DNA of 20,555 nucleotides. Origin: a virus. The translations under genes were made by a program, and so were the position numbers. Of this stretch, positions 1 through 20,555 are shown piece after piece. How positions within the stretch are numbered: the first letter of the stretch is position 1; every line of letters begins with the position of its first letter. The stretch lies in the IMG/VR virus record IMGVR_UViG_3300022758_000417; one strand, given 5' to 3'. The notes beneath the pieces were generated by a model. That model ran no database searches. It saw only the letters and a list, made by a program, of their open reading frames with translations, and was not told where the DNA came from.

Positions 1-50
1 GTATAATGGGATTCGTCAAAGCAAGCCGACCGATCAAAGGAGATTACATT

Positions 51-314
51 ATGGCTGCTATCACCCGCACTTTCAAGAGTTTCGAGCTGACCGCGTACGA
101 ACTGGATGATTCAATCCCGCCCAGCGTGCGCGCTGTCGCCCAGTACGTCGTGCTGGACACCAACATGAACGCCCGCAAAGCCCGTATCGCCTTCCGCGAT
201 GCCGGCGTGGCGCTGCCCAAGGGCTGCACGATCAAGTGGGTCGAAGGCGAGGAGAAGACCTATTCCATGCCCGTGGAAACGTTCCTTGAGAACGCGACCG
301 TCATCGACGCTTAA
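51..314 (+). CDS. Early protein, first gene next to the terminus. Possibly a histone-like dsDNA-binding protein analogous to phi29 p6.
   Basis: RBS AAAGGAG at 36-42, ATG at 51. The ATG at 6 leaves no room for an RBS. The C-terminus ...YSMPVETFLENATV resembles my recollection of phi29 p6 (...YELPVEKFLEVATV). Position matches the p6-p5-p4-TP-DNAP order. Confidence 0.5.
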   Translation: MAAITRTFKSFELTAYELDDSIPPSVRAVAQYVVLDTNMNARKARIAFRDAGVALPKGCTIKWVEGEEKTYSMPVETFLENATVIDA

Positions 315-339
315 ACCATCTGACTAGAAGGAGAAAACC

Positions 340-801
340 ATGACTGAGAACAAAGACATCGCCATCGCCGAGGAAATGCCCGTCAACGACCTCGCACCTG
401 CCCGCACGTACGCCATCGCCGAGCTTGCCAAGCCCGAGGACAACACGTTCTGCTCGGTGAACCCGGAACTTGGAGCGGATGCCAAGAAGCTGATCTACAA
501 CGCGTCCAACAACCCGACGCACAAGATCGACGACTTCATCAACAAGCAGATCGCGCTGAAAGACCTGTTCGTCGAGATCATCGAAATCGCAGACGAGGAC
601 GGCACCGTGGAGCAAGCCCCGCGCATCGTCCTCATCGACGACAAGGGCGAGAGCTACCAGTGCGTGTCGAACGGCGTGTGGGGTTCGCTCAAGAAGATGT
701 TCGCCGTCTACGGCGCGCCAACCTACGAGGAGCCTATCAACGTGGTCGTCAAGCAGGTGAAGGTCAAGCGCGGCACGATGCTCACCCTCGAAGTCGCTTA
801 A
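340..801 (+). CDS. Single-stranded DNA-binding protein, phi29 p5-like.
   Basis: RBS AAGGAG then ATG at 340. The C-terminal half (GESYQCVSNGVWGSL...VVVKQVKVKRGTMLTLEV) resembles phi29 p5 (GSLYSAISKTV...FKVKVVQGTSSKGNVFFSLQL). A strong terminator follows immediately. Confidence 0.55.
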   Translation: MTENKDIAIAEEMPVNDLAPARTYAIAELAKPEDNTFCSVNPELGADAKKLIYNASNNPTHKIDDFINKQIALKDLFVEIIEIADEDGTVEQAPRIVLIDDKGESYQCVSNGVWGSLKKMFAVYGAPTYEEPINVVVKQVKVKRGTMLTLEVA

Positions 802-815
802 AGTTCGCAATCGCA

Positions 816-841
816 GGCCGCACTCAGCGTGCGGCCTTTTT
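816..841 (+). terminator. Rho-independent terminator after the SSB gene.
   Basis: 8-bp GC stem ggccgcac / gtgcggcc with loop tcagc, followed by TTTTT, then the RBS of the next gene. Confidence 0.75.
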
Positions 842-853
842 CAGGAGGAAGCC

Positions 854-1162
854 ATGTTGTCGCTTGCAGACAAGGATTTGATGGAGCAGTTCGTAGCGGA
901 CTCGTCGAACAGGGTGTTGAAGAAAGAGCTATGGGCGCATGCCGTCGTCCCGCAAGGCGTGGCCGTTTTCAAGCGCCATCGTAACGGGCGCATCGAATAC
1001 ATGTTCACCAAGGACGACAAGTTCGATATGAAGCGGGACGACATAAACGACCTGCGAGAGCTTGTGCGCCGCCACGTCATAGACGATTATATCGGACTCG
1101 TCTTCGTTATGCATTCGCAAGCGTTGAAAACGGTTTCCAAGCATATCAAATACCGTTATTGA
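854..1162 (+). CDS. Hypothetical early protein of 102 aa. It has lower GC than its neighbours.
   Basis: RBS AGGAGG, spacer of 5, ATG at 854. Clean ORF between the terminator and the p4-like gene. No homolog recognised. Confidence 0.6.
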   Translation: MLSLADKDLMEQFVADSSNRVLKKELWAHAVVPQGVAVFKRHRNGRIEYMFTKDDKFDMKRDDINDLRELVRRHVIDDYIGLVFVMHSQALKTVSKHIKYRY

Positions 1163-1175
1163 AAGGAGGTGCGCC

Positions 1176-1580
1176 ATGCCTTCGAAAAACGGCGTTTTCT
1201 ACGAGCTGAAGGAATCGCCTTACTCTTTTATGTACGGCGATTGTACGTTCTTCTTCTCGTCTAGGAAGCATCTTTCCAGTTTCATGGACAAGATCTGCGT
1301 TCGAACGCAATGGTTGGACGACAGCATGGAAAAGCGTTTCCACTTCTACGTCAACATGCAGCTGGTCGCCGCGTTCCAACTGTACTTCACGGTGGAGACC
1401 AGGGGGTGCTACGTCAGATTGGAAAACGGTGAGGAGCTGACATGCAGAGAGAACCTAAGATTAAATGGACTGAAAGCCAGCGTTCGCGCCTCAACTCCGC
1501 AGTCCGAAAGTACAACAACGCCATTCGACGGGCTATGCGGGCGAATCCCGCCAACGCCCAGTTCATGCCCGAGCCGGTAA
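1176..1580 (+). CDS. Transcriptional regulator, phi29 p4-like (early/late switch protein).
   Basis: RBS AAAGGAGG then ATG at 1176. N-terminus MPSKNGVFYELKESPYSFMYGDCTFFFSS...FMDK matches phi29 p4 (MPKTQRGIYHNLKESEYVASNTDVTFFFSS...FLDG). ...YFTVETRGCYVRLENGEELTCRE matches ...FYSEVEKRGFHAWLKGDNATWRE. The last 139 nt overlap the terminal-protein gene in another frame. Confidence 0.7.
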   Translation: MPSKNGVFYELKESPYSFMYGDCTFFFSSRKHLSSFMDKICVRTQWLDDSMEKRFHFYVNMQLVAAFQLYFTVETRGCYVRLENGEELTCRENLRLNGLKASVRASTPQSESTTTPFDGLCGRIPPTPSSCPSR

Positions 1581-2182
1581 GCTACAAGGAAGTCAAAGCC
1601 GAGATCAAGAGCGCGCGCGTGCTTAACAACACGGTCGCGCGCTTGCTGCGCGCTACGCGCAAAGGAGCCTTGGACTTGACGAACGTCGGAGAGGGAGGGA
1701 TCGCCACGCGCTACGAAGTGCGGGAGTTCCAGATCGCGAAAGCCGTCAACGAGCGGCGCAAGTCGCTCAGGCGCAAGAAGCTGGGGATCGACTACGGCCA
1801 GACCCTGGGGCGCATGGGAACGTTGCAGCAGAACAACCTGCTTCCCGACAAGCGCACCGCGCGAGACTTCTCTCCCATCGCCCTCAAGCGTTTCATCAAA
1901 CGTTACGAGGAGCTGAGCGCCACGAGTTCCTACGAAAGGCTGAACCGGTACTACGAGAACTATATCAAAGGCCTCGACACGGTGTTCGGCGGCTACTCCG
2001 AGTTCGATGCGGCTATAGCTCAGATCGCGAGGAAGATCGAATCCATGATGAAGTCCAATGCGGGCAAGCTCATGGAGTTCTTCGAGTCCGGAGACGAGCT
2101 TCTGAACATCGAGTACATCTATGCGCCGGAAGACCGCGCCGACAAGATGGGCTACATCCTCGACAGATGGGCTGAGCTATGA
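1442..2182 (+). CDS. Terminal protein, the primer for protein-primed DNA replication.
   Basis: RBS GGTGAGGAG, spacer of 5, ATG at 1442. It lies directly upstream of the DNA polymerase gene, with its stop overlapping the polymerase start. Resemblance to phi29 p3: ARDFSPIALKRFIKRYEEL...YYENYIKGLDTVFGGYSEFDAAIAQIARKI versus HDFDFSKVRSY...LEE...YYEKKMIQLQLNFIKSVEGSFNSFDAADELIEELKKI. The priming Ser is possibly the one in EFFESGDE. Confidence 0.75.
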   Translation: MQREPKIKWTESQRSRLNSAVRKYNNAIRRAMRANPANAQFMPEPVSYKEVKAEIKSARVLNNTVARLLRATRKGALDLTNVGEGGIATRYEVREFQIAKAVNERRKSLRRKKLGIDYGQTLGRMGTLQQNNLLPDKRTARDFSPIALKRFIKRYEELSATSSYERLNRYYENYIKGLDTVFGGYSEFDAAIAQIARKIESMMKSNAGKLMEFFESGDELLNIEYIYAPEDRADKMGYILDRWAEL

Positions 2183-2183
2183 T

Positions 2184-3872
2184 ATGCAGTGCTTCACGGC
2201 TGATTTCGAAACGACGGCAGACGACCTGACCCGAACGCGAGTTTGGGCGTGGGCTGCTTGCACCTTGAAAACCTACGATATAACGACCGGAACCTCCATC
2301 GAAGGGTTCGTGGAATGGTGCGAGCGCGCCCTGGACGCTCGCGTGTACTTCCACAACCTGAAATTCGACGGGAAGTTCATCATATCGCATCTGCTCGACG
2401 CGGGATGGGAATGGATTCCCAGCCACGGAGAGCAAGCGCCCTACCGGTTCACGACGCTGATCAGCGACATGAACCAGTTCTACACCATCAAGCTCTATTT
2501 CAGCAGAGGGCATTATATCGAATTCTGCGATTCGCTGAAGATCATCAGCTTGCCGGTCGCGAAGATTCCGCGCGCGTTCGGCTTCGAGGAAGAGGACGCG
2601 AAGCTCGAGATAGACTACACGGAGCATCGCGATCCCGATCACGTTCTCACGCAGCAGGAGATAGACTACATATCGGCAGATGTCAGGATCGTGGCGCGCG
2701 CCTTGGGCGAGCTGATCGACCAGGGCGCGACCAGGATCACGGCGGGATCGAACGCCATCGCCGAGTACAAGAAGACGATAGGAGGCGAGAAGGGGTTCAG
2801 ACGGACGTTTCCAGTGTGCGACTACGACGCTGAGATACGCCCGTGCTACAAGGGCGGCTTCACCTACGTCAACCCCGATTTCAAAGGGCGCGACATCGGG
2901 GAGGGTATCGTCCTGGACGTTAACAGCCTCTACCCTTCCGTCATGGCCGGAGTCGAAGGCGAGATACTGCCGTACGGCGATCCGATGCTCTTCGAAGGGG
3001 AGTACGTCCCGGATCCTCGATACCCGCTCTACATACAGACCGTGACCGTCGACTTCAAGCTCAAGCCCGGTTTCATCCCTTGCTTGCAGCTCAAAGGCAA
3101 TTTGAGCTTCATGCCGACCGAATACGTAGTCGATTCCAAAGGAGAGCAGACGCTGGTATTGACGAGCGTCGACTTGGCGCTTTTGAAAGACCACTACAAC
3201 ATCTATTCCATCCGCTACGGCAAGGGCTGGAAGTTCAAGGCATCGAACAAGCTATTCTACGATTTCATAATGGCGGCCAACGAGGATAAGGTGCATGCGG
3301 CCGAGGAGGGCAACGCGGGCAAGCGGTACATGGCGAAGCTCAAGATGAACTCCTCGTACGGCAAGATGGCGACGCATCCGGTCAAACGGAGCCGCCGGCC
3401 GGTCATGTGCGAGGACGGCATAGTGCGCTACCCGCTGCTCGACCCGGAGCAGACAGAAGGAATGTACCTTCCCGCCGGGGCTTTCATCACGGCATGGGCG
3501 AGGAACAAGACGATACGCTCAGCCCAGAAGGTGAAGGATCGTTTCCTCTACGCCGACACCGATTCGCTCCACTTGACCGGAACCGAGATCCCGGAAGAGC
3601 TTGACGTGGACGATTACAGATTGGGCGCGTGGAAGCTCGAAAGCACGTTTCAGCGCGCCAGGTTCCTGCGCCCGAAGACCTATATCGAGGACGAGGGCGG
3701 CAAGCTCACCGTGCATTGCGCGGGGCTGCCAGAATCGTGCCATCCTCACGTCACGTGGGACAATTTCCATGTCGGCGCGAAATTTCCGGGAAAACTCTAT
3801 TCCAAGACCGTAAAAGGCGGTATTATACTATACGAAGGTGATTTTGTCATCAGAAAGGAGACAGGCTTATGA
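2184..3872 (+). CDS. Protein-primed family-B DNA polymerase (phi29 p2-like).
   Basis: Exonuclease motifs: Exo I FTADFETT, Exo II YFHNLKFDGKFI, Exo III YISADVRIV. Polymerase motifs: A DVNSLYPSVM, B KLKMNSSYGKMA, C YADTDS, KxY RPKTYIED. Insertions of TPR1 and TPR2 length sit between motifs A-B and B-C. Collinear with phi29 p2 over the whole length. The start was chosen as ATG 2184 (MQCFTADFETT), not the ORF-track start at 2121, which lies inside the terminal-protein gene. Confidence 0.95.
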   Translation: MQCFTADFETTADDLTRTRVWAWAACTLKTYDITTGTSIEGFVEWCERALDARVYFHNLKFDGKFIISHLLDAGWEWIPSHGEQAPYRFTTLISDMNQFYTIKLYFSRGHYIEFCDSLKIISLPVAKIPRAFGFEEEDAKLEIDYTEHRDPDHVLTQQEIDYISADVRIVARALGELIDQGATRITAGSNAIAEYKKTIGGEKGFRRTFPVCDYDAEIRPCYKGGFTYVNPDFKGRDIGEGIVLDVNSLYPSVMAGVEGEILPYGDPMLFEGEYVPDPRYPLYIQTVTVDFKLKPGFIPCLQLKGNLSFMPTEYVVDSKGEQTLVLTSVDLALLKDHYNIYSIRYGKGWKFKASNKLFYDFIMAANEDKVHAAEEGNAGKRYMAKLKMNSSYGKMATHPVKRSRRPVMCEDGIVRYPLLDPEQTEGMYLPAGAFITAWARNKTIRSAQKVKDRFLYADTDSLHLTGTEIPEELDVDDYRLGAWKLESTFQRARFLRPKTYIEDEGGKLTVHCAGLPESCHPHVTWDNFHVGAKFPGKLYSKTVKGGIILYEGDFVIRKETGL

Positions 3873-4225
3873 GCAGGTACCAACCGAGCTTGCGCGAGCT
3901 GGCCATGGAGCCGGACGAGGACAAGCGGCTCGAGATGGCCGCGCGAATCGACGAGGACGCGGCGGAACTCGACGACCGCTGGGACGAGCGCGAGGGCTGG
4001 CGAAACGAGCGCGAGGAGTGGGACGCGGAGCGCGACCGCCTGAACGCGGAGCGAGACGAGGCGATCGCCGAGCGCGACCGCTACCGCGAGGAGCGCGACG
4101 AGTCGCGCCGCAAGTACGCCGACCGGTTCTTCGCCGTCGAAGGCCAGACGCTGCTCCATGCGAACGAGGTAGGCGAGGAAGTTCGGCGCGAGCCGATCCG
4201 CTCAGCCGACGAGATCTGGGATTAA
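3869..4225 (+). CDS. Head scaffolding protein (gp7-like).
   Basis: RBS AAAGGAG then ATG at 3869. ATGA overlap with the polymerase stop. 118 aa, extremely Glu/Arg/Asp-rich with coiled-coil character. Lies immediately upstream of the capsid gene. Confidence 0.7.
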   Translation: MSRYQPSLRELAMEPDEDKRLEMAARIDEDAAELDDRWDEREGWRNEREEWDAERDRLNAERDEAIAERDRYREERDESRRKYADRFFAVEGQTLLHANEVGEEVRREPIRSADEIWD

Positions 4226-4234
4226 GGAGATATT

Positions 4235-5716
4235 ATGGCAGTGAAGCAACCTAATATGAAAGCCGCCGATTCGCCGATCGTCATGAAGGCCGGCGATACG
4301 GCAGCGCGCGAGACGGCCGCGCAGAAGGCGGTCGAAGCGACCATCAACGAGACCCCGGAGGTAGCGGCCGCGCTCGCGGCTCGCGGGATCCCGGCGACTT
4401 ACGACTCGAACAACCGCGCCTACGTGGAGCTTGCCGGAACCACCGACGAGATCCATGCCATCGGGGAGTACCTGACCAGCTACCAGCCCGCGCGAAACGC
4501 GTTCCTCAACGCGCTGGTGAACCGCATCGGCCTCACCATCGTGACATCGAAGCTGTACCGCAACCCCTGGGCGGTGTTCAAGCGCGGGTACCTCGAGTTC
4601 GGGGACACGATCGAGGAAATCTTCGTCAACCTCGCCGACGTTCACGGCTTCTACCCCGAGGGCGCGGAGGACACGTTCGCCAAGCGCGAGCTTCCCGACG
4701 TGCGCACCGCGTTCCACCGTATGAACTTCCAGAAGTTCTACAAGACGACCGTCTCCTCCCAGCAGCTGCGCCAGGCGTTCCTGTCCTGGACGGGCGTTAG
4801 CGACCTGATCGCGCGCATCATCGAGTCTCTCTACACCAGCGCCAACACGGACGAGTACTACGTCATGCGCTACTTCCTGGCCAAGTGCCTCCTCAACGGC
4901 TACATCGGCTCGGTGGAGATTCCCGCAATCGGCAAGGACAACGCCGTCGACATCGCCACGCAGTTCCAGTACATGTCCGACCTGTTCCAGTACCAGTCCA
5001 CGAAGTACAACATGGCGGGCGTGACCACCCACACCGATTTCGAAGACCAGTACTTCATCGTCACGGCCAAGTTCAAGGCCACGATGAACATGAACGTGCT
5101 GGCCACCGCATTCAACTTGGAGTACCGCGAGTTCCAGGCGCGCATGATCACGGTCGACACGTTCACCGACTTCGACTGGGTTCGCATGGACGCGCTGTTC
5201 ACCGACCCGGCCACCGGCCAGCTCGACCCGAACTACCACCGCTTCACGCAAGAGGAGATCGCGCTGCTCGAGACCGTGCCGGCGGTGCTGGTGTCCCGCG
5301 ATTGGTGGATGGTGCTGGACAACTACGTGGAGTCCGCGCAGTGGTTCAACGGCGAAGGCCTGTACTGGAACCATTGGCACCATGTGTGGAAGACCATCAG
5401 CTGCTCGCCGTTCGGCCAGGCGGCCGCCTTCACCCCGACCGCCCCGACCATCACGAGCGTGACGGTCACGCCGGCGACCGCCACCCTTTCCAAGGGAGCC
5501 GACCTGCAGCTGTCTGCCGCGGTCGTCGGAACCGGCATCGTGAACCATGGCGTGCAGTGGACGGTGACCGGAGGCGCGGCATCCGGCACGACCGTCACCA
5601 ACGGCGGGTACCTGCATGTGGCGGCCAACGAGACGGCGACGACGCTCACCGTCAAGGCAACCTCCGTCCAGGACGGAACGAAGACGGGCGAATCCACCGT
5701 CACCGTCACCGCATAG
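4235..5716 (+). CDS. Major capsid protein with a C-terminal BIG2 (bacterial Ig-like group 2) domain, as in phi29 gp8.
   Basis: RBS AAGGAG then ATG at 4235. 493 aa. The C-terminal ~90 aa (ITSVTVTPATATLSKGADLQLSAAVVGTG...VKATSVQDGTKTGESTVTVTA) is a typical BIG2 repeat. Sits between the scaffold and tail-knob genes. Confidence 0.8.
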   Translation: MAVKQPNMKAADSPIVMKAGDTAARETAAQKAVEATINETPEVAAALAARGIPATYDSNNRAYVELAGTTDEIHAIGEYLTSYQPARNAFLNALVNRIGLTIVTSKLYRNPWAVFKRGYLEFGDTIEEIFVNLADVHGFYPEGAEDTFAKRELPDVRTAFHRMNFQKFYKTTVSSQQLRQAFLSWTGVSDLIARIIESLYTSANTDEYYVMRYFLAKCLLNGYIGSVEIPAIGKDNAVDIATQFQYMSDLFQYQSTKYNMAGVTTHTDFEDQYFIVTAKFKATMNMNVLATAFNLEYREFQARMITVDTFTDFDWVRMDALFTDPATGQLDPNYHRFTQEEIALLETVPAVLVSRDWWMVLDNYVESAQWFNGEGLYWNHWHHVWKTISCSPFGQAAAFTPTAPTITSVTVTPATATLSKGADLQLSAAVVGTGIVNHGVQWTVTGGAASGTTVTNGGYLHVAANETATTLTVKATSVQDGTKTGESTVTVTA

Positions 5717-9559: not shown

Positions 9560-11038
9560 ATGGCAGAATCCACGAAGAACATGACGGTGGGCGCGGGAAG
9601 CGCGAGCGCGAGCGTCACCGCCACCGTGACCGACCAGATGCCGGGCGTTCCCTGCCCGACGACTCCGGGTTACACCTACACCGGCATGCGCTACGTGCCG
9701 GTGTTCGCAGACCCTCCGGAGTGGTCTAGCGCGAACAGCTACGAGCCGCTGGAGATCGTGATCCACGAGGGAAATTCCTACACGTCCAAGACGTTCGTTC
9801 CCGTCGGCATCGACATCTCGAATTCCACTTATTGGGCGCTGACCGGCAATTACAACGCCCAGGTCGAACAGTACCGCCAGCAGGTGCAGCAGTTCGACGG
9901 CCGGATCACGAAGAACACGGAGGACATAGCGGTCAATACCGCCGATATAGCGAATCTTTCCGAGAAAACGTCTATGTTGGCGCATTCGAAGGACTTCAAA
10001 GGCTCCAATATCCTGTATGTGACCGATTCATGGGGCGTTAACACGACAGGAGTCACCAAGCCGTATGTGAACAGCCTCGGAGACATTCTAGGGGCTAACC
10101 TGACGAGCCTCTCGGTGGGAAGCACCGGATATATATCCGGCGGCACGAACAACTTCGTCAACCGGTTGAAAGCATGGGCGGATGCCAATCCCGGCAAAAC
10201 CGGGGATATCGATTATGTGATGGTTTGCGGGTCGTCGAACGACTATCCTCACACTACCAGCGAGATCGCCGCCGCAGTCAACCAATTCGTTTCATACGCT
10301 CTTTCCGCCTTCCCCAACGCTCAAGTGGTGGTTATCCCCCAGTTCGCGTCCAATAAGCCGGCATACGCATCGGTGGATACCGCGGACGACAACCTATGGC
10401 GGAAAGTCAATGCGGCTGCGACGGTGGCGTACTACAATAATCTTTGGCATAGGACTCGCTTCATCCCTAATACCTTTTACGCGTTGGCGTTCACGCCCGC
10501 GTCGTTCATGTCCTCCGATAACATCCATCTCACGCAATCAGGGCATAATTACCTGGCCAAATGGCTTTCGGAGGCGTTGTTGGGGGTGAGCAATTCATCT
10601 AACATCACCTACACCCTTCCCCAAGAGACCACGTTCACGACGCATGATAACTCCGGTGCGGTCGTGGAAACGATAACGACTACCACGTCGGTTTCCGTCA
10701 CCCTTTCGATCGTGAACGGCGTATTGTGCGGTTCGGTGTCTTTCGGGTTCCAACCGACTAAACCCGCGGTTTCCATCAGGATGAACACACCGGCGTTCGT
10801 GCTGCTCAACACCCAGGTTGGTTCTTCATGGGGGACGGTGGTGTCGGTGGGGGTCGACAATGCGTTCAATCGATCTAGCATTCGCTTCGGAGATATGAAG
10901 GGGAAGACGTTGCCCGCTAGCGGCGCGAACGCATGGATCGAGTTCGGAGCTTTGACCCCTTACATGAAAAGCGGCAACACGTTGATAGTATCGGCCAACA
11001 TTTCCATTCCCGTTTCCTACTTCGTGATGGGCAACTGA
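9560..11038 (+). CDS. Tail fibre / appendage (receptor-binding) protein with an SGNH (GDSL) hydrolase domain.
   Basis: RBS AAGGAGAAG then ATG at 9560. The ORF-track start at 9419 lies inside the upstream gene. The N-terminal anchor motif TGMRYVPVFADPPEWSSANSYEPLEIVIHEGNSYTSKTFVPVGIDISNSTYWALTGNYNAQVEQY is the widespread phage tail-fibre N-terminal motif. A coiled-coil neck follows. SGNH blocks are present: I ILYVTDSWG, III VMVCGSSNDY, V DNIHLTQSGHNYLA. Confidence 0.75.
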   Translation: MAESTKNMTVGAGSASASVTATVTDQMPGVPCPTTPGYTYTGMRYVPVFADPPEWSSANSYEPLEIVIHEGNSYTSKTFVPVGIDISNSTYWALTGNYNAQVEQYRQQVQQFDGRITKNTEDIAVNTADIANLSEKTSMLAHSKDFKGSNILYVTDSWGVNTTGVTKPYVNSLGDILGANLTSLSVGSTGYISGGTNNFVNRLKAWADANPGKTGDIDYVMVCGSSNDYPHTTSEIAAAVNQFVSYALSAFPNAQVVVIPQFASNKPAYASVDTADDNLWRKVNAAATVAYYNNLWHRTRFIPNTFYALAFTPASFMSSDNIHLTQSGHNYLAKWLSEALLGVSNSSNITYTLPQETTFTTHDNSGAVVETITTTTSVSVTLSIVNGVLCGSVSFGFQPTKPAVSIRMNTPAFVLLNTQVGSSWGTVVSVGVDNAFNRSSIRFGDMKGKTLPASGANAWIEFGALTPYMKSGNTLIVSANISIPVSYFVMGN

Positions 11039-12262: not shown

Positions 12263-12452
12263 TGTATGATGGTCATGCGCCGGAAAGCAAGCTATCTTCT
12301 GCGTCTGTGGGGCACCCGGTGAAACGGGCACGGGCGCATACGGAGACAAGCCCCCTCTGTGATAGTCTTTTCGGTTAGCGCCCTTTGACTTAGCCCCTGT
12401 CGCTTGGACATCCATGATGGCAGGGGCTTCCAAGTTCAAGGGATGATAAGTC
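12263..12452 (+). ncRNA. Candidate structured RNA (possible packaging pRNA) in the 202-nt non-coding gap upstream of the packaging ATPase.
   Basis: This is the longest non-coding gap in an otherwise tightly packed module. Complementary segments: atgcgcc 12275-81 with ggcgcat 12333-39, enclosing hairpin cccg-gtgaaa-cggg 12316-29. agcccctg 12392-99 pairs with caggggct 12421-28. tgactta 12386-92 pairs with taagtca 12446-52. All phi29-like phages need a pRNA. The call is speculative. Confidence 0.25.
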
Positions 12453-12463
12453 AAAGGAGGAAC

Positions 12464-13168
12464 GTGGCTAAATACTGGGACATATCGAAAACTCTTTCTT
12501 ATAATTGCCTCTTCAATTTCATCTACGGAATCCGAGGCGCGGGCAAGACCTACACGGGACTCCAGCACTACGTCAAGCGCTACCTGCGCACGGGGCGGCG
12601 CTTCATGTACCTGCGGCGCACGGAGGAGGAGCTGAAGAACCTCACCACGCGCAAAGACGGTCGTCTGTTCAACCATGTGCAAGTCGAGTTCCCAGGTCAC
12701 GCCCTGTGGGCAGAATCGAACATCCTGCATATCGACAAGGAGATATGCGGCTACGCGCAAGCGCTGTCAACGGCGCGCAAGCTCAAGTCCGATGCGCTGG
12801 ACAACGTGGACACTATCCTGTTCGACGAGTTCGTCATCGACAAGGGTTTCCAAACGTACCTTCCCGACGAGGTGACGGCGTTCTTGGAGCTTTACGAAAC
12901 CATCGCGCGCCCAGGCTCTAGAGACTACGACGTGACGTGCATGTTCTGGGGAAACGCTGTATCTAGCGCGAACCCATACATGGATTACTTCGGCCTCGAG
13001 CTTCCTTACAAAACCGACGTTTGGAGGCGCGGCGAGTTTTTTGACGCAGATGGTGGCACCTCCCGAACTGGTCGAGGCGAAGAAGGGAACGCGTTTCTAC
13101 AAGGCCATCGAGGGCAGCTCGTATGCTGCGTACGCCGCCGAGAACAAGTGGCTTCGCGACAACCCTAA
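12464..13168 (+). CDS. DNA packaging ATPase (phi29 gp16-like), N-terminal part. The reading frame breaks at a T6 run at 13037-13042.
   Basis: RBS AAAGGAGG at 12453-60, GTG at 12464. The alternative ATG at 12443 lacks an RBS. LSYNCLFNFIYGIRGAGKTYTG (Walker A) matches gp16 (LSYDRILNFVIGARGIGKSYAM). RFMYLRRTEEEL matches QFIYVRRYKPEL. LDNVDTILFDEFVIDKGFQTYLPDEVTAFLELYETIARP (Walker B) matches YPNVSTIVFDEFIREKDNSNYIPNEVSALLNLMDTVFRN. Similarity continues in another frame after about 13040. Confidence 0.8.
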   Translation: MAKYWDISKTLSYNCLFNFIYGIRGAGKTYTGLQHYVKRYLRTGRRFMYLRRTEEELKNLTTRKDGRLFNHVQVEFPGHALWAESNILHIDKEICGYAQALSTARKLKSDALDNVDTILFDEFVIDKGFQTYLPDEVTAFLELYETIARPGSRDYDVTCMFWGNAVSSANPYMDYFGLELPYKTDVWRRGEFFDADGGTSRTGRGEEGNAFLQGHRGQLVCCVRRREQVASRQP

Positions 13169-13475
13169 GTTCATCGCGAGGAAGGGCAAGAATGCCGAAT
13201 ACCAGTTCACGCTCCTTTACTACGACGATGCTATCGGCATATGGCGCGACAACCGAAACGGTTGCTATTACGTATCGGAAGACGTTGACCGCCAATGCCG
13301 CCACGTGTTCGCCGCCACGACGGAAGACCATGAGCCGAACACTCTGCTGCTCAAAGGTTTCAAATCCTCGCCCCATCTGGCTAACTTGAAGAAGGCTTAC
13401 GACATGGGGTGCGTGCGGTACGAGTCCATGAAGCTCAACAACTGGTTTCGGGATATAGTTAGGATGGGATTATGA
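13041..13475 (+). CDS. DNA packaging ATPase, C-terminal part, in the +1 frame relative to the N-terminal part.
   Basis: PPELVEAKKGTRFYKAIEGSSY...KNAEYQFTLLYYDDAIGIWRDNRNGCYYVSED...NTLLLKGFKSSPHLANLKKAYDMGCVRYESMKLNNWFRDIV aligns with the gp16 C-terminus (SLDFSSERRKTRFGRLIDGTEYG...KFVFSIVYNGFTLGVWVDVNQGLMYIDT...NMMLITNYKNNYHLRKLASAFMNGYLRFDNQVIRNIAYELF). This frame is open from 12936. The first in-frame ATG is at 13050. Confidence 0.7.
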   Translation: MTQMVAPPELVEAKKGTRFYKAIEGSSYAAYAAENKWLRDNPKFIARKGKNAEYQFTLLYYDDAIGIWRDNRNGCYYVSEDVDRQCRHVFAATTEDHEPNTLLLKGFKSSPHLANLKKAYDMGCVRYESMKLNNWFRDIVRMGL

Positions 13476-13476
13476 T
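13455..13476 (+). repeat. Direct repeat DR1, AT[A/C]GTTAGGATGGGATT[A/G]TGAT, at the 3' end of the ATPase gene.
   Basis: 22 nt matching 13786-13807 with 2 mismatches. The core GTTAGGATGGGATT is identical in both. Each copy encodes ...VRMGL*, followed by an overlapping ATG. Confidence 0.8.
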
Positions 13477-13720
13477 CATCACGACTAAGAATGGCGACAT
13501 GGTAGATACAGTGCAGATTATCGAAGAAAACGTATATACCATAGATGATGTTAAATACGCGGTGGAAACTGACATGTATATTGCTGCAACGGTTCAGATA
13601 CGAATTTGCGATACTGGAAAGAAACAGCTGGAAGTTTCCGACCCGGAAATTGGCAAAGAAGCGCAGTACCATCTACGACAGTTCATCAAGTGCATGAAGA
13701 AGTTGGGAAGGTATTACTGA
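13472..13720 (+). CDS. Hypothetical 82-aa acidic protein in an AT-rich insert (a moron; possible anti-defence or host-takeover gene).
   Basis: ATGA overlap with the ATPase stop. GC is about 40% by hand count over the first 60 nt, against about 60% in the flanks. Bracketed by direct repeats at 13455-76 and 13786-807. Confidence 0.55.
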   Translation: MIITTKNGDMVDTVQIIEENVYTIDDVKYAVETDMYIAATVQIRICDTGKKQLEVSDPEIGKEAQYHLRQFIKCMKKLGRYY

Positions 13721-15307: not shown

Positions 15308-15397
15308 ATGAAGATGCATGAGGAACAAGTAACAGCGTGTCTGATTATGGCGGTCATCTTGGCCGCCTTACTCATTGTCAAACTGAGCGTGCATTGA
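15308..15397 (+). CDS. Tiny hydrophobic peptide (29 aa, MKMHEEQVTACLIMAVILAALLIVKLSVH). Low confidence.
   Basis: ATG directly after the upstream stop. No clear SD. The stop is followed immediately by the second TGAAC-N3-GTTCA-TTAATT site. Same peptide-plus-palindrome arrangement as 14980-15076. Confidence 0.25.
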   Translation: MKMHEEQVTACLIMAVILAALLIVKLSVH

Positions 15398-15416
15398 TGA
15401 ACGATGTTCATTAATT
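15398..15416 (+). promoter_or_regulatory. Palindromic operator-like site TGAACgatGTTCA followed by TTAATT (copy 2).
   Basis: See copy 1. Lies 31 nt upstream of the -35 of the consensus promoter. Confidence 0.5.
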
Positions 15417-15446
15417 GCATGATTGAGATGACAATTGGAAAATGAT

Positions 15447-15475
15447 TTGACATGAGGTGATGAAGCGTGTATAAT
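15447..15475 (+). promoter_or_regulatory. Perfect sigma70 consensus promoter, TTGACA-N17-TATAAT, reading rightwards.
   Basis: TTGACA at 15447-52, a 17-nt spacer, TATAAT at 15470-75, with TG immediately upstream of the -10. It is followed by GGG, so 15469-15478 (GTATAATGGG) equals the contig's terminal 10-mer. The promoter fires towards the inverted-repeat junction at 15519. Confidence 0.7.
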
Positions 15476-15518
15476 GGGGCTACAAAATCCACACGACAGA
15501 TGAATATGGGGGGAAAGA

Positions 15519-16321
15519 GGGTGTGGGTGGTCACGCCCGCCATGTTGTACTTCGTGGACTGGTACTGGAACAGGTCGGACATGTACTGGAACTGCGTGGC
15601 GATGTCGACGGCGTTGTCCTTGCCGATTGCGGGAATCTCCACCGAGCCGATGTAGCCGTTGAGGAGGCACTTGGCCAGGAAGTAGCGCATGACGTAGTAC
15701 TCGTCCGTGTTGGCGCTGGTGTAGAGAGACTCGATGATGCGCGCGATCAGGTCGCTAACGCCCGTCCAGGACAGGAACGCCTGGCGCAGCTGCTGGGAGG
15801 AGACGGTCGTCTTGTAGAACTTCTGGAAGTTCATACGGTGGAACGCGGTGCGCACGTCGGGAAGCTCGCGCTTGGCGAACGTGTCCTCCGCGCCCTCGGG
15901 GTAGAAGCCGTGAACGTCGGCGAGGTTGACGAAGATTTCCTCGATCGTGTCCCCGAACTCGAGGTACCCGCGCTTGAACACCGCCCAGGGGTTGCGGTAC
16001 AGCTTCGATGTCACGATGGTGAGGCCGATGCGGTTCACCAGCGCGTTGAGGAACGCGTTTCGCGCGGGCTGGTAGCTGGTCAGGTACTCCCCCGATGGCA
16101 TGGATCTCGTCGGTGGTTCCGGCAAGCTCCACGTAGGCGCGGTTGTTCGAGTCGTAAGTCGCCGGGATCCCGCGAGCCGCGAGCGCGGCCGCTACCTCCG
16201 GGGTCTCGTTGATGGTCGCTTCGACCGCCTTCTGCGCGGCCGTCTCGCGCGCTGCCGTATCGCCGGCCTTCATGACGATCGGCGAATCGGCGGCTTTCAT
16301 ATTAGGTTGCTTCACTGCCAT
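15519..16321 (-). pseudogene. Truncated, frameshifted copy of the capsid gene in the right repeat arm.
   Basis: Minus-strand translation is identical to capsid residues 1-77. A C5 run at 16089-16093 (G4 at 4463-4466 in the left copy) then shifts the frame. The copy ends at the junction, corresponding to capsid codon ~268. Confidence 0.85.
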
Positions 16322-16330
16322 AATATCTCC

Positions 16331-16687
16331 TTAATCCCAGATCTCGTCGGCTGAGCGGATCGGCTCGCGCCGAACTTCCTCGCCTACCTCGTTCGCATGG
16401 AGCAGCGTCTGGCCTTCGACGGCGAAGAACCGGTCGGCGTACTTGCGGCGCGACTCGTCGCGCTCCTCGCGGTAGCGGTCGCGCTCGGCGATCGCCTCGT
16501 CTCGCTCCGCGTTCAGGCGGTCGCGCTCCGCGTCCCACTCCTCGCGCTCGTTTCGCCAGCCCTCGCGCTCGTCCCAGCGGTCGTCGAGTTCCGCCGCGTC
16601 CTCGTCGATTCGCGCGGCCATCTCGAGCCGCTTGTCCTCGTCCGGCTCCATGGCCAGCTCGCGCAAGCTCGGTTGGTACCTGCTCAT
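16331..16687 (-). CDS. Scaffolding protein, second copy in the repeat.
   Basis: Identical translation to 3869..4225. Confidence 0.7.
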   Translation of the reverse strand: MSRYQPSLRELAMEPDEDKRLEMAARIDEDAAELDDRWDEREGWRNEREEWDAERDRLNAERDEAIAERDRYREERDESRRKYADRFFAVEGQTLLHANEVGEEVRREPIRSADEIWD

Positions 16688-18372
16688 AAGCCTGTCTCCT
16701 TTCTGATGACAAAATCACCTTCGTATAGTATAATACCGCCTTTTACGGTCTTGGAATAGAGTTTTCCCGGAAATTTCGCGCCGACATGGAAATTGTCCCA
16801 CGTGACGTGAGGATGGCACGATTCTGGCAGCCCCGCGCAATGCACGGTGAGCTTGCCGCCCTCGTCCTCGATATAGGTCTTCGGGCGCAGGAACCTGGCG
16901 CGCTGAAACGTGCTTTCGAGCTTCCACGCGCCCAATCTGTAATCGTCCACGTCAAGCTCTTCCGGGATCTCGGTTCCGGTCAAGTGGAGCGAATCGGTGT
17001 CGGCGTAGAGGAAACGATCCTTCACCTTCTGGGCTGAGCGTATCGTCTTGTTCCTCGCCCATGCCGTGATGAAAGCCCCGGCGGGAAGGTACATTCCTTC
17101 TGTCTGCTCCGGGTCGAGCAGCGGGTAGCGCACTATGCCGTCCTCGCACATGACCGGCCGGCGGCTCCGTTTGACCGGATGCGTCGCCATCTTGCCGTAC
17201 GAGGAGTTCATCTTGAGCTTCGCCATGTACCGCTTGCCCGCGTTGCCCTCCTCGGCCGCATGCACCTTATCCTCGTTGGCCGCCATTATGAAATCGTAGA
17301 ATAGCTTGTTCGATGCCTTGAACTTCCAGCCCTTGCCGTAGCGGATGGAATAGATGTTGTAGTGGTCTTTCAAAAGCGCCAAGTCGACGCTCGTCAATAC
17401 CAGCGTCTGCTCTCCTTTGGAATCGACTACGTATTCGGTCGGCATGAAGCTCAAATTGCCTTTGAGCTGCAAGCAAGGGATGAAACCGGGCTTGAGCTTG
17501 AAGTCGACGGTCACGGTCTGTATGTAGAGCGGGTATCGAGGATCCGGGACGTACTCCCCTTCGAAGAGCATCGGATCGCCGTACGGCAGTATCTCGCCTT
17601 CGACTCCGGCCATGACGGAAGGGTAGAGGCTGTTAACGTCCAGGACGATACCCTCCCCGATGTCGCGCCCTTTGAAATCGGGGTTGACGTAGGTGAAGCC
17701 GCCCTTGTAGCACGGGCGTATCTCAGCGTCGTAGTCGCACACTGGAAACGTCCGTCTGAACCCCTTCTCGCCTCCTATCGTCTTCTTGTACTCGGCGATG
17801 GCGTTCGATCCCGCCGTGATCCTGGTCGCGCCCTGGTCGATCAGCTCGCCCAAGGCGCGCGCCACGATCCTGACATCTGCCGATATGTAGTCTATCTCCT
17901 GCTGCGTGAGAACGTGATCGGGATCGCGATGCTCCGTGTAGTCTATCTCGAGCTTCGCGTCCTCTTCCTCGAAGCCGAACGCGCGCGGAATCTTCGCGAC
18001 CGGCAAGCTGATGATCTTCAGCGAATCGCAGAATTCGATATAATGCCCTCTGCTGAAATAGAGCTTGATGGTGTAGAACTGGTTCATGTCGCTGATCAGC
18101 GTCGTGAACCGGTAGGGCGCTTGCTCTCCGTGGCTGGGAATCCATTCCCATCCCGCGTCGAGCAGATGCGATATGATGAACTTCCCGTCGAATTTCAGGT
18201 TGTGGAAGTACACGCGAGCGTCCAGGGCGCGCTCGCACCATTCCACGAACCCTTCGATGGAGGTTCCGGTCGTTATATCGTAGGTTTTCAAGGTGCAAGC
18301 AGCCCACGCCCAAACTCGCGTTCGGGTCAGGTCGTCTGCCGTCGTTTCGAAATCAGCCGTGAAGCACTGCAT
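16684..18372 (-). CDS. Protein-primed family-B DNA polymerase, second copy.
   Basis: Identical translation to 2184..3872. Confidence 0.9.
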   Translation of the reverse strand: MQCFTADFETTADDLTRTRVWAWAACTLKTYDITTGTSIEGFVEWCERALDARVYFHNLKFDGKFIISHLLDAGWEWIPSHGEQAPYRFTTLISDMNQFYTIKLYFSRGHYIEFCDSLKIISLPVAKIPRAFGFEEEDAKLEIDYTEHRDPDHVLTQQEIDYISADVRIVARALGELIDQGATRITAGSNAIAEYKKTIGGEKGFRRTFPVCDYDAEIRPCYKGGFTYVNPDFKGRDIGEGIVLDVNSLYPSVMAGVEGEILPYGDPMLFEGEYVPDPRYPLYIQTVTVDFKLKPGFIPCLQLKGNLSFMPTEYVVDSKGEQTLVLTSVDLALLKDHYNIYSIRYGKGWKFKASNKLFYDFIMAANEDKVHAAEEGNAGKRYMAKLKMNSSYGKMATHPVKRSRRPVMCEDGIVRYPLLDPEQTEGMYLPAGAFITAWARNKTIRSAQKVKDRFLYADTDSLHLTGTEIPEELDVDDYRLGAWKLESTFQRARFLRPKTYIEDEGGKLTVHCAGLPESCHPHVTWDNFHVGAKFPGKLYSKTVKGGIILYEGDFVIRKETGL

Positions 18373-18373
18373 A

Positions 18374-19114
18374 TCATAGCTCAGCCCATCTGTCGAGGAT
18401 GTAGCCCATCTTGTCGGCGCGGTCTTCCGGCGCATAGATGTACTCGATGTTCAGAAGCTCGTCTCCGGACTCGAAGAACTCCATGAGCTTGCCCGCATTG
18501 GACTTCATCATGGATTCGATCTTCCTCGCGATCTGAGCTATAGCCGCATCGAACTCGGAGTAGCCGCCGAACACCGTGTCGAGGCCTTTGATATAGTTCT
18601 CGTAGTACCGGTTCAGCCTTTCGTAGGAACTCGTGGCGCTCAGCTCCTCGTAACGTTTGATGAAACGCTTGAGGGCGATGGGAGAGAAGTCTCGCGCGGT
18701 GCGCTTGTCGGGAAGCAGGTTGTTCTGCTGCAACGTTCCCATGCGCCCCAGGGTCTGGCCGTAGTCGATCCCCAGCTTCTTGCGCCTGAGCGACTTGCGC
18801 CGCTCGTTGACGGCTTTCGCGATCTGGAACTCCCGCACTTCGTAGCGCGTGGCGATCCCTCCCTCTCCGACGTTCGTCAAGTCCAAGGCTCCTTTGCGCG
18901 TAGCGCGCAGCAAGCGCGCGACCGTGTTGTTAAGCACGCGCGCGCTCTTGATCTCGGCTTTGACTTCCTTGTAGCTTACCGGCTCGGGCATGAACTGGGC
19001 GTTGGCGGGATTCGCCCGCATAGCCCGTCGAATGGCGTTGTTGTACTTTCGGACTGCGGAGTTGAGGCGCGAACGCTGGCTTTCAGTCCATTTAATCTTA
19101 GGTTCTCTCTGCAT
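18374..19114 (-). CDS. Terminal protein, second copy.
   Basis: Identical translation to 1442..2182. Confidence 0.75.
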   Translation of the reverse strand: MQREPKIKWTESQRSRLNSAVRKYNNAIRRAMRANPANAQFMPEPVSYKEVKAEIKSARVLNNTVARLLRATRKGALDLTNVGEGGIATRYEVREFQIAKAVNERRKSLRRKKLGIDYGQTLGRMGTLQQNNLLPDKRTARDFSPIALKRFIKRYEELSATSSYERLNRYYENYIKGLDTVFGGYSEFDAAIAQIARKIESMMKSNAGKLMEFFESGDELLNIEYIYAPEDRADKMGYILDRWAEL

Positions 19115-19380
19115 GTCAGCTCCTCACCGTTTTCCAATCTGACGTAGCACCCCCTGGTCTCCACCGTGAAGTACAGTTGGAACGCGGCGACCAGCTGCAT
19201 GTTGACGTAGAAGTGGAAACGCTTTTCCATGCTGTCGTCCAACCATTGCGTTCGAACGCAGATCTTGTCCATGAAACTGGAAAGATGCTTCCTAGACGAG
19301 AAGAAGAACGTACAATCGCCGTACATAAAAGAGTAAGGCGATTCCTTCAGCTCGTAGAAAACGCCGTTTTTCGAAGGCAT
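18976..19380 (-). CDS. p4-like transcriptional regulator, second copy.
   Basis: Identical translation to 1176..1580. Confidence 0.7.
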   Translation of the reverse strand: MPSKNGVFYELKESPYSFMYGDCTFFFSSRKHLSSFMDKICVRTQWLDDSMEKRFHFYVNMQLVAAFQLYFTVETRGCYVRLENGEELTCRENLRLNGLKASVRASTPQSESTTTPFDGLCGRIPPTPSSCPSR

Positions 19381-19393
19381 GGCGCACCTCCTT

Positions 19394-19702
19394 TCAATAA
19401 CGGTATTTGATATGCTTGGAAACCGTTTTCAACGCTTGCGAATGCATAACGAAGACGAGTCCGATATAATCGTCTATGACGTGGCGGCGCACAAGCTCTC
19501 GCAGGTCGTTTATGTCGTCCCGCTTCATATCGAACTTGTCGTCCTTGGTGAACATGTATTCGATGCGCCCGTTACGATGGCGCTTGAAAACGGCCACGCC
19601 TTGCGGGACGACGGCATGCGCCCATAGCTCTTTCTTCAACACCCTGTTCGACGAGTCCGCTACGAACTGCTCCATCAAATCCTTGTCTGCAAGCGACAAC
19701 AT
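19394..19702 (-). CDS. Hypothetical early protein, second copy.
   Basis: Identical translation to 854..1162. Confidence 0.6.
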   Translation of the reverse strand: MLSLADKDLMEQFVADSSNRVLKKELWAHAVVPQGVAVFKRHRNGRIEYMFTKDDKFDMKRDDINDLRELVRRHVIDDYIGLVFVMHSQALKTVSKHIKYRY

Positions 19703-19714
19703 GGCTTCCTCCTG

Positions 19715-19740
19715 AAAAAGGCCGCACGCTGAGTGCGGCC
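19715..19740 (-). terminator. Rho-independent terminator, second copy.
   Basis: Mirror image of 816..841. Confidence 0.7.
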
Positions 19741-19754
19741 TGCGATTGCGAACT

Positions 19755-20216
19755 TTAAGCGACTTCGAGGGTGAGCATCGTGCCGCGCTTGACCTTCACC
19801 TGCTTGACGACCACGTTGATAGGCTCCTCGTAGGTTGGCGCGCCGTAGACGGCGAACATCTTCTTGAGCGAACCCCACACGCCGTTCGACACGCACTGGT
19901 AGCTCTCGCCCTTGTCGTCGATGAGGACGATGCGCGGGGCTTGCTCCACGGTGCCGTCCTCGTCTGCGATTTCGATGATCTCGACGAACAGGTCTTTCAG
20001 CGCGATCTGCTTGTTGATGAAGTCGTCGATCTTGTGCGTCGGGTTGTTGGACGCGTTGTAGATCAGCTTCTTGGCATCCGCTCCAAGTTCCGGGTTCACC
20101 GAGCAGAACGTGTTGTCCTCGGGCTTGGCAAGCTCGGCGATGGCGTACGTGCGGGCAGGTGCGAGGTCGTTGACGGGCATTTCCTCGGCGATGGCGATGT
20201 CTTTGTTCTCAGTCAT
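19755..20216 (-). CDS. p5-like SSB, second copy.
   Basis: Identical translation to 340..801. Confidence 0.55.
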   Translation of the reverse strand: MTENKDIAIAEEMPVNDLAPARTYAIAELAKPEDNTFCSVNPELGADAKKLIYNASNNPTHKIDDFINKQIALKDLFVEIIEIADEDGTVEQAPRIVLIDDKGESYQCVSNGVWGSLKKMFAVYGAPTYEEPINVVVKQVKVKRGTMLTLEVA

Positions 20217-20241
20217 GGTTTTCTCCTTCTAGTCAGATGGT

Positions 20242-20505
20242 TTAAGCGTCGATGACGGTCGCGTTCTCAAGGAACGTTTCCACGGGCATGGAATAGGTCT
20301 TCTCCTCGCCTTCGACCCACTTGATCGTGCAGCCCTTGGGCAGCGCCACGCCGGCATCGCGGAAGGCGATACGGGCTTTGCGGGCGTTCATGTTGGTGTC
20401 CAGCACGACGTACTGGGCGACAGCGCGCACGCTGGGCGGGATTGAATCATCCAGTTCGTACGCGGTCAGCTCGAAACTCTTGAAAGTGCGGGTGATAGCA
20501 GCCAT
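20242..20505 (-). CDS. First early gene (p6-like?), second copy.
   Basis: Identical translation to 51..314. Confidence 0.5.
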   Translation of the reverse strand: MAAITRTFKSFELTAYELDDSIPPSVRAVAQYVVLDTNMNARKARIAFRDAGVALPKGCTIKWVEGEEKTYSMPVETFLENATVIDA

Positions 20506-20555
20506 AATGTAATCTCCTTTGATCGGTCGGCTTGCTTTGACGAATCCCATTATAC

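Follow-up and report, generated by a model that had tools for sequence, protein, structure and literature searches.

We find that the gene for the DNA-packaging ATPase of the gp16 type is divided between two reading frames in the window (the whole stretch of 20,555 nt analyzed here, IMG/VR virus record IMGVR_UViG_3300022758_000417), and that a single extra thymine in a homopolymer is the sole cause of the division. This extra T is probably an artefactual insertion of one base in a run that is naturally T5, and we infer a technical rather than a mutational origin for it. The split is not conserved in any related phage that we compared and, as far as the sequences tell, it is not a biological feature of this phage, which reads as a phi29-like (Guelinviridae) podophage of Eggerthella. 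The same contig, of JGI/IMG metagenome origin, carries a second homopolymer discrepancy in an essential gene, and a long inverted copy of its own left end.

The packaging ATPase gene

The features on which the analysis turns are collected in Table 1. The ATPase gene of the window starts at the same site as in the Eggerthella phage LE1-1 and other relatives. Its upstream part contains both the Walker A motif GIRGAGKT (residues 22-29, nt 12527-12550) and the Walker B motif ILFDEF (residues 118-123, nt 12815-12832), which agree with the motifs of ASCE ATPases (GxxxxGK[T/S] for Walker A and hhhhDE for Walker B). Against the Pfam profile PF05894 (Podovirus_Gp16), the upstream ORF (in frame 2) aligns to profile positions 6-172 (E 5e-37), and the ORF at 13041-13475 aligns to positions 195-321 (E 3e-23). 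A preliminary description of this DNA, made from its letters, had named a gp16-like packaging ATPase with the Walker motifs upstream, and had asked whether both fragments would align to gp16-family profiles and whether the downstream frame resembles gp16 at all; the matches to PF05894 and to the phi29 gp16 structure 7JQQ support that identification, and the similarity extends to the downstream frame.

Table 1. Coordinates of the packaging ATPase gene, the homopolymers and the fold-back junction in the window.
Feature	Coordinates	Strand	Remarks
G4 run in the intact major-capsid-protein gene, left arm	4463..4466	+	In frame (HAIGEYL); gapless alignment to all relatives
SD-like AAAGGAGG (12453-12460) and GTG start codon of the ATPase gene	12453..12466	+	Read from the sequence
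gp16-type DNA-packaging (encapsidation) ATPase gene, whole	12464..13475	+	Single ORF of 336 aa once one T is removed; PF05894, phi29 gp16 7JQQ
Upstream ATPase ORF as it stands, N-terminal ATPase domain	12464..13168	+	193 gp16-matching residues, then a 41-codon out-of-frame tail; TAA 13166-13168
T6 homopolymer	13037..13042	+	Relatives have T5 (GAG TTT TTG ACG) or TTCCTG / TTCTTG
Downstream +1-frame ORF, gp16 linker and C-terminal domain	13041..13475	+	Begins LTQMVAPPELVEAKKG...; natural stop TGA 13473-13475; PF05894, 6V1W, 7CNB
Fold-back junction	15520..15524		GGTGT, present both at the true right end and in capsid-gene 5031-5035 read as reverse complement
G5 run (C5 on the + strand) in the right-arm copy of the capsid gene	16089..16093	-	Only difference between the arms; frameshifts the copy

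When one T is removed, the repaired protein of 336 aa scores 215.3 bits against PF05894 (cut-off 25) and covers profile positions 6-321 of 331. It aligns over residues 4-331 to the full-length structure of phi29 gp16 (7JQQ, E 3.5e-54); the structure of the N-terminal domain (5HD9) aligns to residues 4-178, and those of the C-terminal domain (6V1W and 7CNB) to residues 230-332. The repaired protein is homologous to phi29 gp16 over its full length, including the Walker A and B motifs and both domains; unlike phi29 gp16, the gene as written in the window breaks after the ATPase domain, ahead of the linker and C-terminal domain. One uninterrupted ORF is the only family characteristic that it lacks, owing to the extra T at 13037-13042, and by every other criterion it is a member of the gp16 family. 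In phages of the phi29 type gp16 is essential for packaging, as is established for the phi29 motor (structures 7JQQ and 5HD9).

The T6 run and the frame switch

Direct reading confirms the run of six thymines where the preliminary description had placed it. The junction codons in the window (13031-13048) are GGC GAG TTT TTT GAC GCA, and the run lies in the context GGCGAG TTTTTT GACGCAG; the window has one other T6 run and no homopolymer longer than six. In the alignment with the relatives the single-base gap falls within the T run and the flanks are identical, in agreement with the earlier claim that the frame switches to +1 exactly there. Deleting one T yields GAG TTT TTG ACG, and with it the peptide E-F-L-T found in LE1-1; the last phenylalanine of the gp16-matching part of the upstream ORF corresponds to leucine in the intact protein, and the junction peptide is GEFLTQMVAPPELVEAK in the repaired frame vs. 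DADGGTSR in the out-of-frame tail. The prediction that one T fewer would fuse the two halves holds, since a single ORF matching gp16 from end to end results; only the predicted length of about 335 aa needs correcting, to 336.

Comparison with related phages

The nearest cultured relative of the window is the Eggerthella phage LE1-1 (MW679025.1; Guelinviridae; 15,977 bp; host Eggerthella lenta), whose structural and replication proteins are all collinear on the window; apart from the ATPase, every LE1-1 protein maps onto the window in one frame. Its DNA encapsidation protein (QXG83151.1) likewise has 336 aa and is encoded between lysozyme and tail lysin, as in the window, and its junction peptide WRRGEFLTQMVAPPEL is the same as that of the repaired window protein. 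At the DNA level, the 1.3 kb that we queried (12300-13600 of the window) share 89.9% identity with LE1-1. The junction of LE1-1 reads GAG TTC CTG ACG, without a T run and within an intact ORF, whereas the window reads GAG TTT TTT G, one base more. Pfam searches of two collinear relatives (L004 and L053) returned DNA_pol_B_2, Phage_connector, Phi29_MCP, phi29_gp9_C, Phi-29_GP4, and Phi29_Phage_SSB; the group to which the window belongs shares with phi29 a neighborhood of protein-primed PolB, connector, phi29-type major capsid protein, and gp9-like tail protein. A search of the literature on Eggerthella phages found no paper naming LE1-1; a preprint on phiKL11 was set aside, as it concerns an unrelated phage of 44 kb.

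The related set comprises about 50 contigs, including LE1-1. The whole gene was translated in 45 of these; three (L008-L010) were examined at the junction only, and one (L054) does not contain the gene. All 45 fully translated relatives have the ATPase as an intact single ORF of 336 or 338 aa, and the remainder are in frame at the junction. In particular, one ORF of either length was found in each of the 42 IMG/VR loci recovered by a protein-guided scan, as well as in L004-L006, L053, and LE1-1. The codons for the Phe-Leu pair vary among the IMG/VR loci (TTC CTG in 21, TTC TTG in 4, TTT TTG in 2, and TTC CTC in 2), and a more distant group has other residues there. A T5 run in frame, GAGTTTTTGACG, occurs in eight closer contigs, of which IMG/VR supplied two, Logan three, and ENA or other metagenome records the remaining three. 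DNA patterns permitting either T5 or T6 matched two IMG/VR contigs and three metagenome contigs, all of them T5. Looking for the run in related phages, as the preliminary description had suggested, yielded T5 or no run at all in the roughly 50 contigs, and never T6. The peptide WRRGEFLTQMVAPP is conserved across the junction in the relatives, and the T run itself is a synonymous accident of one sub-lineage.

The exact repaired protein of 336 aa is already on record in three independent public assemblies (ERR12405966, DRR684289, and SRR12143811). By comparison, six possible forms of the split products were looked up exactly in public protein records and none was present, and a search with the out-of-frame tail of 41 residues found no relative in 5.8 billion public protein clusters. 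Comparison with L003-L006 revealed 8-20 synonymous and no nonsynonymous codon differences in the C-terminal part of the gene, and 30-36 synonymous and 0-3 nonsynonymous differences in the N-terminal part; in L005 and in L006 the lone nonsynonymous difference of the N-terminal part is probably the start codon. These counts indicate that selection acts on both halves of the ATPase, and the region downstream of the break is undecayed.

Relatives nearer than about 96% DNA identity were sought with exact proteins of the window. This search led to L053, a collinear relative of 16,042 bp that shares 96.5% identity with the window over 15.3 kb and whose ATPase is unsplit; an exact look-up of a 492-aa protein unique to the window found no record. 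Within the coding regions of the 15.3 kb shared with L053, just one uncompensated indel is not a multiple of three, namely the extra T. A search for further frameshifts found none in the unique part of the window, and the only other one is the G5 run in the duplicated copy of the capsid gene.

Reliability of the contig

Positions 15520-20555 of the window are an inverted copy of positions 1-5035, and the two arms of 5,035 nt are identical but for one homopolymer. The duplication spans the early genes, the DNA polymerase, and the 5′ part of the capsid gene. In L003 and L053, which show the true genome, GGGGGGAAAGAGGGTGT is followed by CAGATTTAC... and some 50 nt in all; the window departs from this at the 5-nt microhomology GGTGT, where it enters the capsid gene at 5035 as reverse complement and reads back to position 1. 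The related contigs (about 50) are all of 17 kb or less and without such a fold-back, and the window exceeds a typical one by about 4.5 kb. Compared with L053, the window would correspond to a genome of about 16 kb, short of some 380 nt at its left end and about 50 nt at its right end, followed by a fold-back copy of 5 kb. This copy looks like the product of a template switch (of the MDA type) or an assembly chimera, not a natural 5-kb inverted terminal repeat. Among the chimeras that strand-displacing polymerases form by template switching during MDA, more than 85% have inverted sequences, and more than 70% of the junctions were primed at complementary sequences of 2-21 nt (Lasken and Stockwell; PMC1855051). 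The window shares with inverted chimeras of this type an inverted duplication at a 5-nt microhomology, an assignment made by pattern only.

The one difference between the arms is a second homopolymer discrepancy: the capsid gene has G4 in the left arm and G5 in the right-arm copy. The contig contains two frame-breaking events, each an extension of a homopolymer by one base in an essential gene. In this respect it resembles homopolymer-length assembly errors, which likewise take the form of 1-nt extensions that break essential genes; here, one of the two is contradicted by the contig's own second copy. As a rough consistency check, one discrepancy in 2 × 5,035 nt predicts about 1.0 event in the unique part of 10,484 nt, and one (the T6 run) was observed. 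To judge from the two arms, homopolymer lengths in this contig are demonstrably unreliable, although the G4/G5 difference could be real heterogeneity in the population.

Genome ends and other loci

A near-consensus sigma-70 promoter (TTGACA, 17 nt, TATAAT) lies at 15447-15476 on the plus strand and is directed at the right genome end; downstream of it, L053 has only about 100 nt of non-coding DNA. Positions 15362-15524 of the window recur in inverted orientation near the left end of the IMG/VR contig L002, a sign that sub-terminal inverted repeats of 160 bp or more may occur naturally. In phi29, the packaging RNA (pRNA) is transcribed towards a genome end, and the region of the sigma-70 promoter could be the site of a packaging RNA gene. 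Rfam detected no pRNA of the phi29 type in the window at the gathering threshold, or in L053 at E values up to 1, and Rfam and tRNA scans found nothing; the absence of an Rfam pRNA contrasts with the phi29-like packaging ATPase, connector, and capsid.

Two further loci vary between the window and some of its relatives. A non-coding gap of 200 nt (12263-12463) lies 5′ of the ATPase gene, where LE1-1 and L005 have about 200 extra bases and an annotated ORF of 67 aa (LE11_18) that overlaps the ATPase start; this ORF is missing from the window, L004, L006, and L053, and the gap is a variable hot spot of insertion and deletion. The most divergent gene (9560-11038) encodes the 492-aa protein mentioned above, an SGNH/GDSL-hydrolase tail protein, which in its first 263 residues is only about 54% identical to its LE1-1 counterpart and is alone in its 90% cluster of the protein collection; these properties would fit a receptor-binding or depolymerase module that evolves rapidly.

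Recoding signals at the T6 run

We checked whether the site resembles known recoding sites, and none of the recoding features that we tested was found there. Neither T6 nor the two-frame arrangement occurs in any of the related contigs (0 of about 50), and the codons at the shift site vary synonymously. The 0-frame codon after the run, GAC, is ordinary, neither a stop nor rare. The sole SD-like sequence, GGAGG at 13023-13027, lies 9 nt upstream of the run and encodes Trp-Arg-Arg; L037 and L038 have TGGCGACGC in its place, which leaves the protein unchanged. In prfB the corresponding SD spacing is 3 nt. The 100 nt following the run showed no stimulatory structure (-33.4 kcal/mol vs. a shuffle mean of -33.2, z = -0.06).

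A +1 shift at a run of identical bases would restore the full-length product here, as it does in +1 frameshifting of the prfB/RF2 type and in slippage on A/T runs (IS elements, dnaX). Unlike those sites, the run in the window is unconserved and only 6 nt long; its 0 frame offers neither a slow nor a stop codon, and it lacks a correctly spaced SD and a downstream structure. Because the recoding signals are missing and the site is not conserved, a programmed device is ruled out in any useful sense. The programmed +1 frameshift that the preliminary description had listed was rejected for these reasons: in about 50 related contigs the run is absent or is an in-frame T5, no slow codon follows it, no SD is correctly spaced, and no stimulatory element lies downstream. 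Transcriptional slippage was rejected as well, a run of 6 nt being too short for efficient slippage of RNA polymerase (about 9 nt); in many bacterial genomes, coding sequences show selection against slippage-prone A/T runs from about 9 nt upwards (PMC1088944). Overall, a programmed or compensatory frameshift at the T6 run is very unlikely.

Interpretation of the extra T

Of the three origins that the preliminary description had left side by side (a sequencing indel, a recent inactivating mutation, and a programmed +1 frameshift), the indel is favored and the programmed frameshift is unsupported. An artefact is favored because the same contig has a second homopolymer inconsistency and a chimeric fold-back; what we observed is a single-base change in a homopolymer that is absent from the relatives, with an undecayed sequence downstream, alongside separate signs of a like error and of misassembly. 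On the other side, consensus errors at homopolymers of 5-6 nt are uncommon in Illumina data, which counts against an artefact if that was the platform. A genuine, very recent private mutation, by replication slippage in the T5 run of a phage genome or sub-population, is rather unlikely but is the main rival; it would leave a packaging-defective genome, either transient or complemented by a co-infecting wild type. Homopolymers are natural hot spots of 1-nt indels, the closest lineage truly has T5 at this site, deeply sequenced virome assemblies can capture minor variants, and the right-arm G5 variant of the capsid gene could be another defective allele. Since the downstream frame is undecayed, any real mutation must be very young, and since gp16 is essential for packaging, a population with T6 in the majority would be non-viable. 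The T6 allele is in none of the approximately 50 related contigs, its tail is without a relative in the protein clusters, and the contig bears independent signs of artefact, all of which speak against a private mutation. Such a mutation would be as non-functional as an artefact, and a genuine minor or defective variant traversed by the assembler would have the same appearance as one.

Readings in which the T6 run is real and the ATPase is nevertheless made fare much worse. Expression through +1 frameshifting, whether programmed or compensatory, by slippage of tRNA-Phe on UUU UUU or of RNA polymerase, is highly improbable. The tRNA-Phe could re-pair perfectly from UUU at 13037-39 to UUU at 13038-40, after which UUG ACG would read the correct protein, and low-level compensatory frameshifting on homopolymer indels is documented for the G run of the herpesvirus thymidine kinase gene (PMC5009743). 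Moreover, gp16 is catalytic and present in five copies per motor (the 7JQQ pentamer), and little protein may suffice. It is just as doubtful that T6 is both real and dominant in its population, the phage being kept viable by low-level +1 slippage on UUU UUU, ribosomal or transcriptional, that provides the pentameric motor with enough gp16. T6 is absent from all the relatives, most of which read TTC CTG and have no run to slip on; GAC is an ordinary next codon, GGAGG is 9 nt off and is lost in L037 and L038, the 100 nt downstream fold like shuffled sequences, and the run has 6 nt where about 9 would be expected for slippage. Still more improbable is a functional division into two polypeptides, in which the ATPase domain with its foreign tail of 41 aa would assemble non-covalently with a C-terminal domain started from TTG 13041, ATG 13050, or GTG 13053. 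The position of the break would suit it, near the end of the crystallized N-terminal ATPase domain and so in the inter-domain linker region (5HD9 4-178; 6V1W and 7CNB 230-332), and in-frame start codons do lie just past the run. But none of the relatives is split, and there is no dedicated RBS, since GGAGG, at distances of 13 nt from the TTG and 22 nt from the ATG that follow it, is ordinary coding sequence common to the unsplit relatives; nor is there any sign of adaptation, the protein sequence being otherwise identical to that of intact homologues.

Phe and Leu at residues 192-193 are encoded by TTT TTG in this lineage, which gives a T5 run. The one T added in the contig shifts the frame where the N-terminal ATPase domain ends, so that the gene appears as two ORFs. 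The T was probably added by a homopolymer-length error, or by an erroneous path through a minor variant, during amplification, sequencing, or assembly, and the process that made the 5-kb fold-back and the G4/G5 discrepancy probably also gave the extra T.

A T6 run that was real and expressed would be a small, instructive instance of an essential phage gene that relies on compensatory frameshifting, although nothing here suggests so. We recommend flagging the contig as chimeric, a genome of about 16 kb with a fold-back, and not taking it for a 20.5-kb genome with inverted terminal repeats of 5 kb. Its two ORFs should be annotated as one packaging ATPase of the gp16 type with a probable frameshift error, rather than entered as separate genes or labelled a pseudogene or recoding site.
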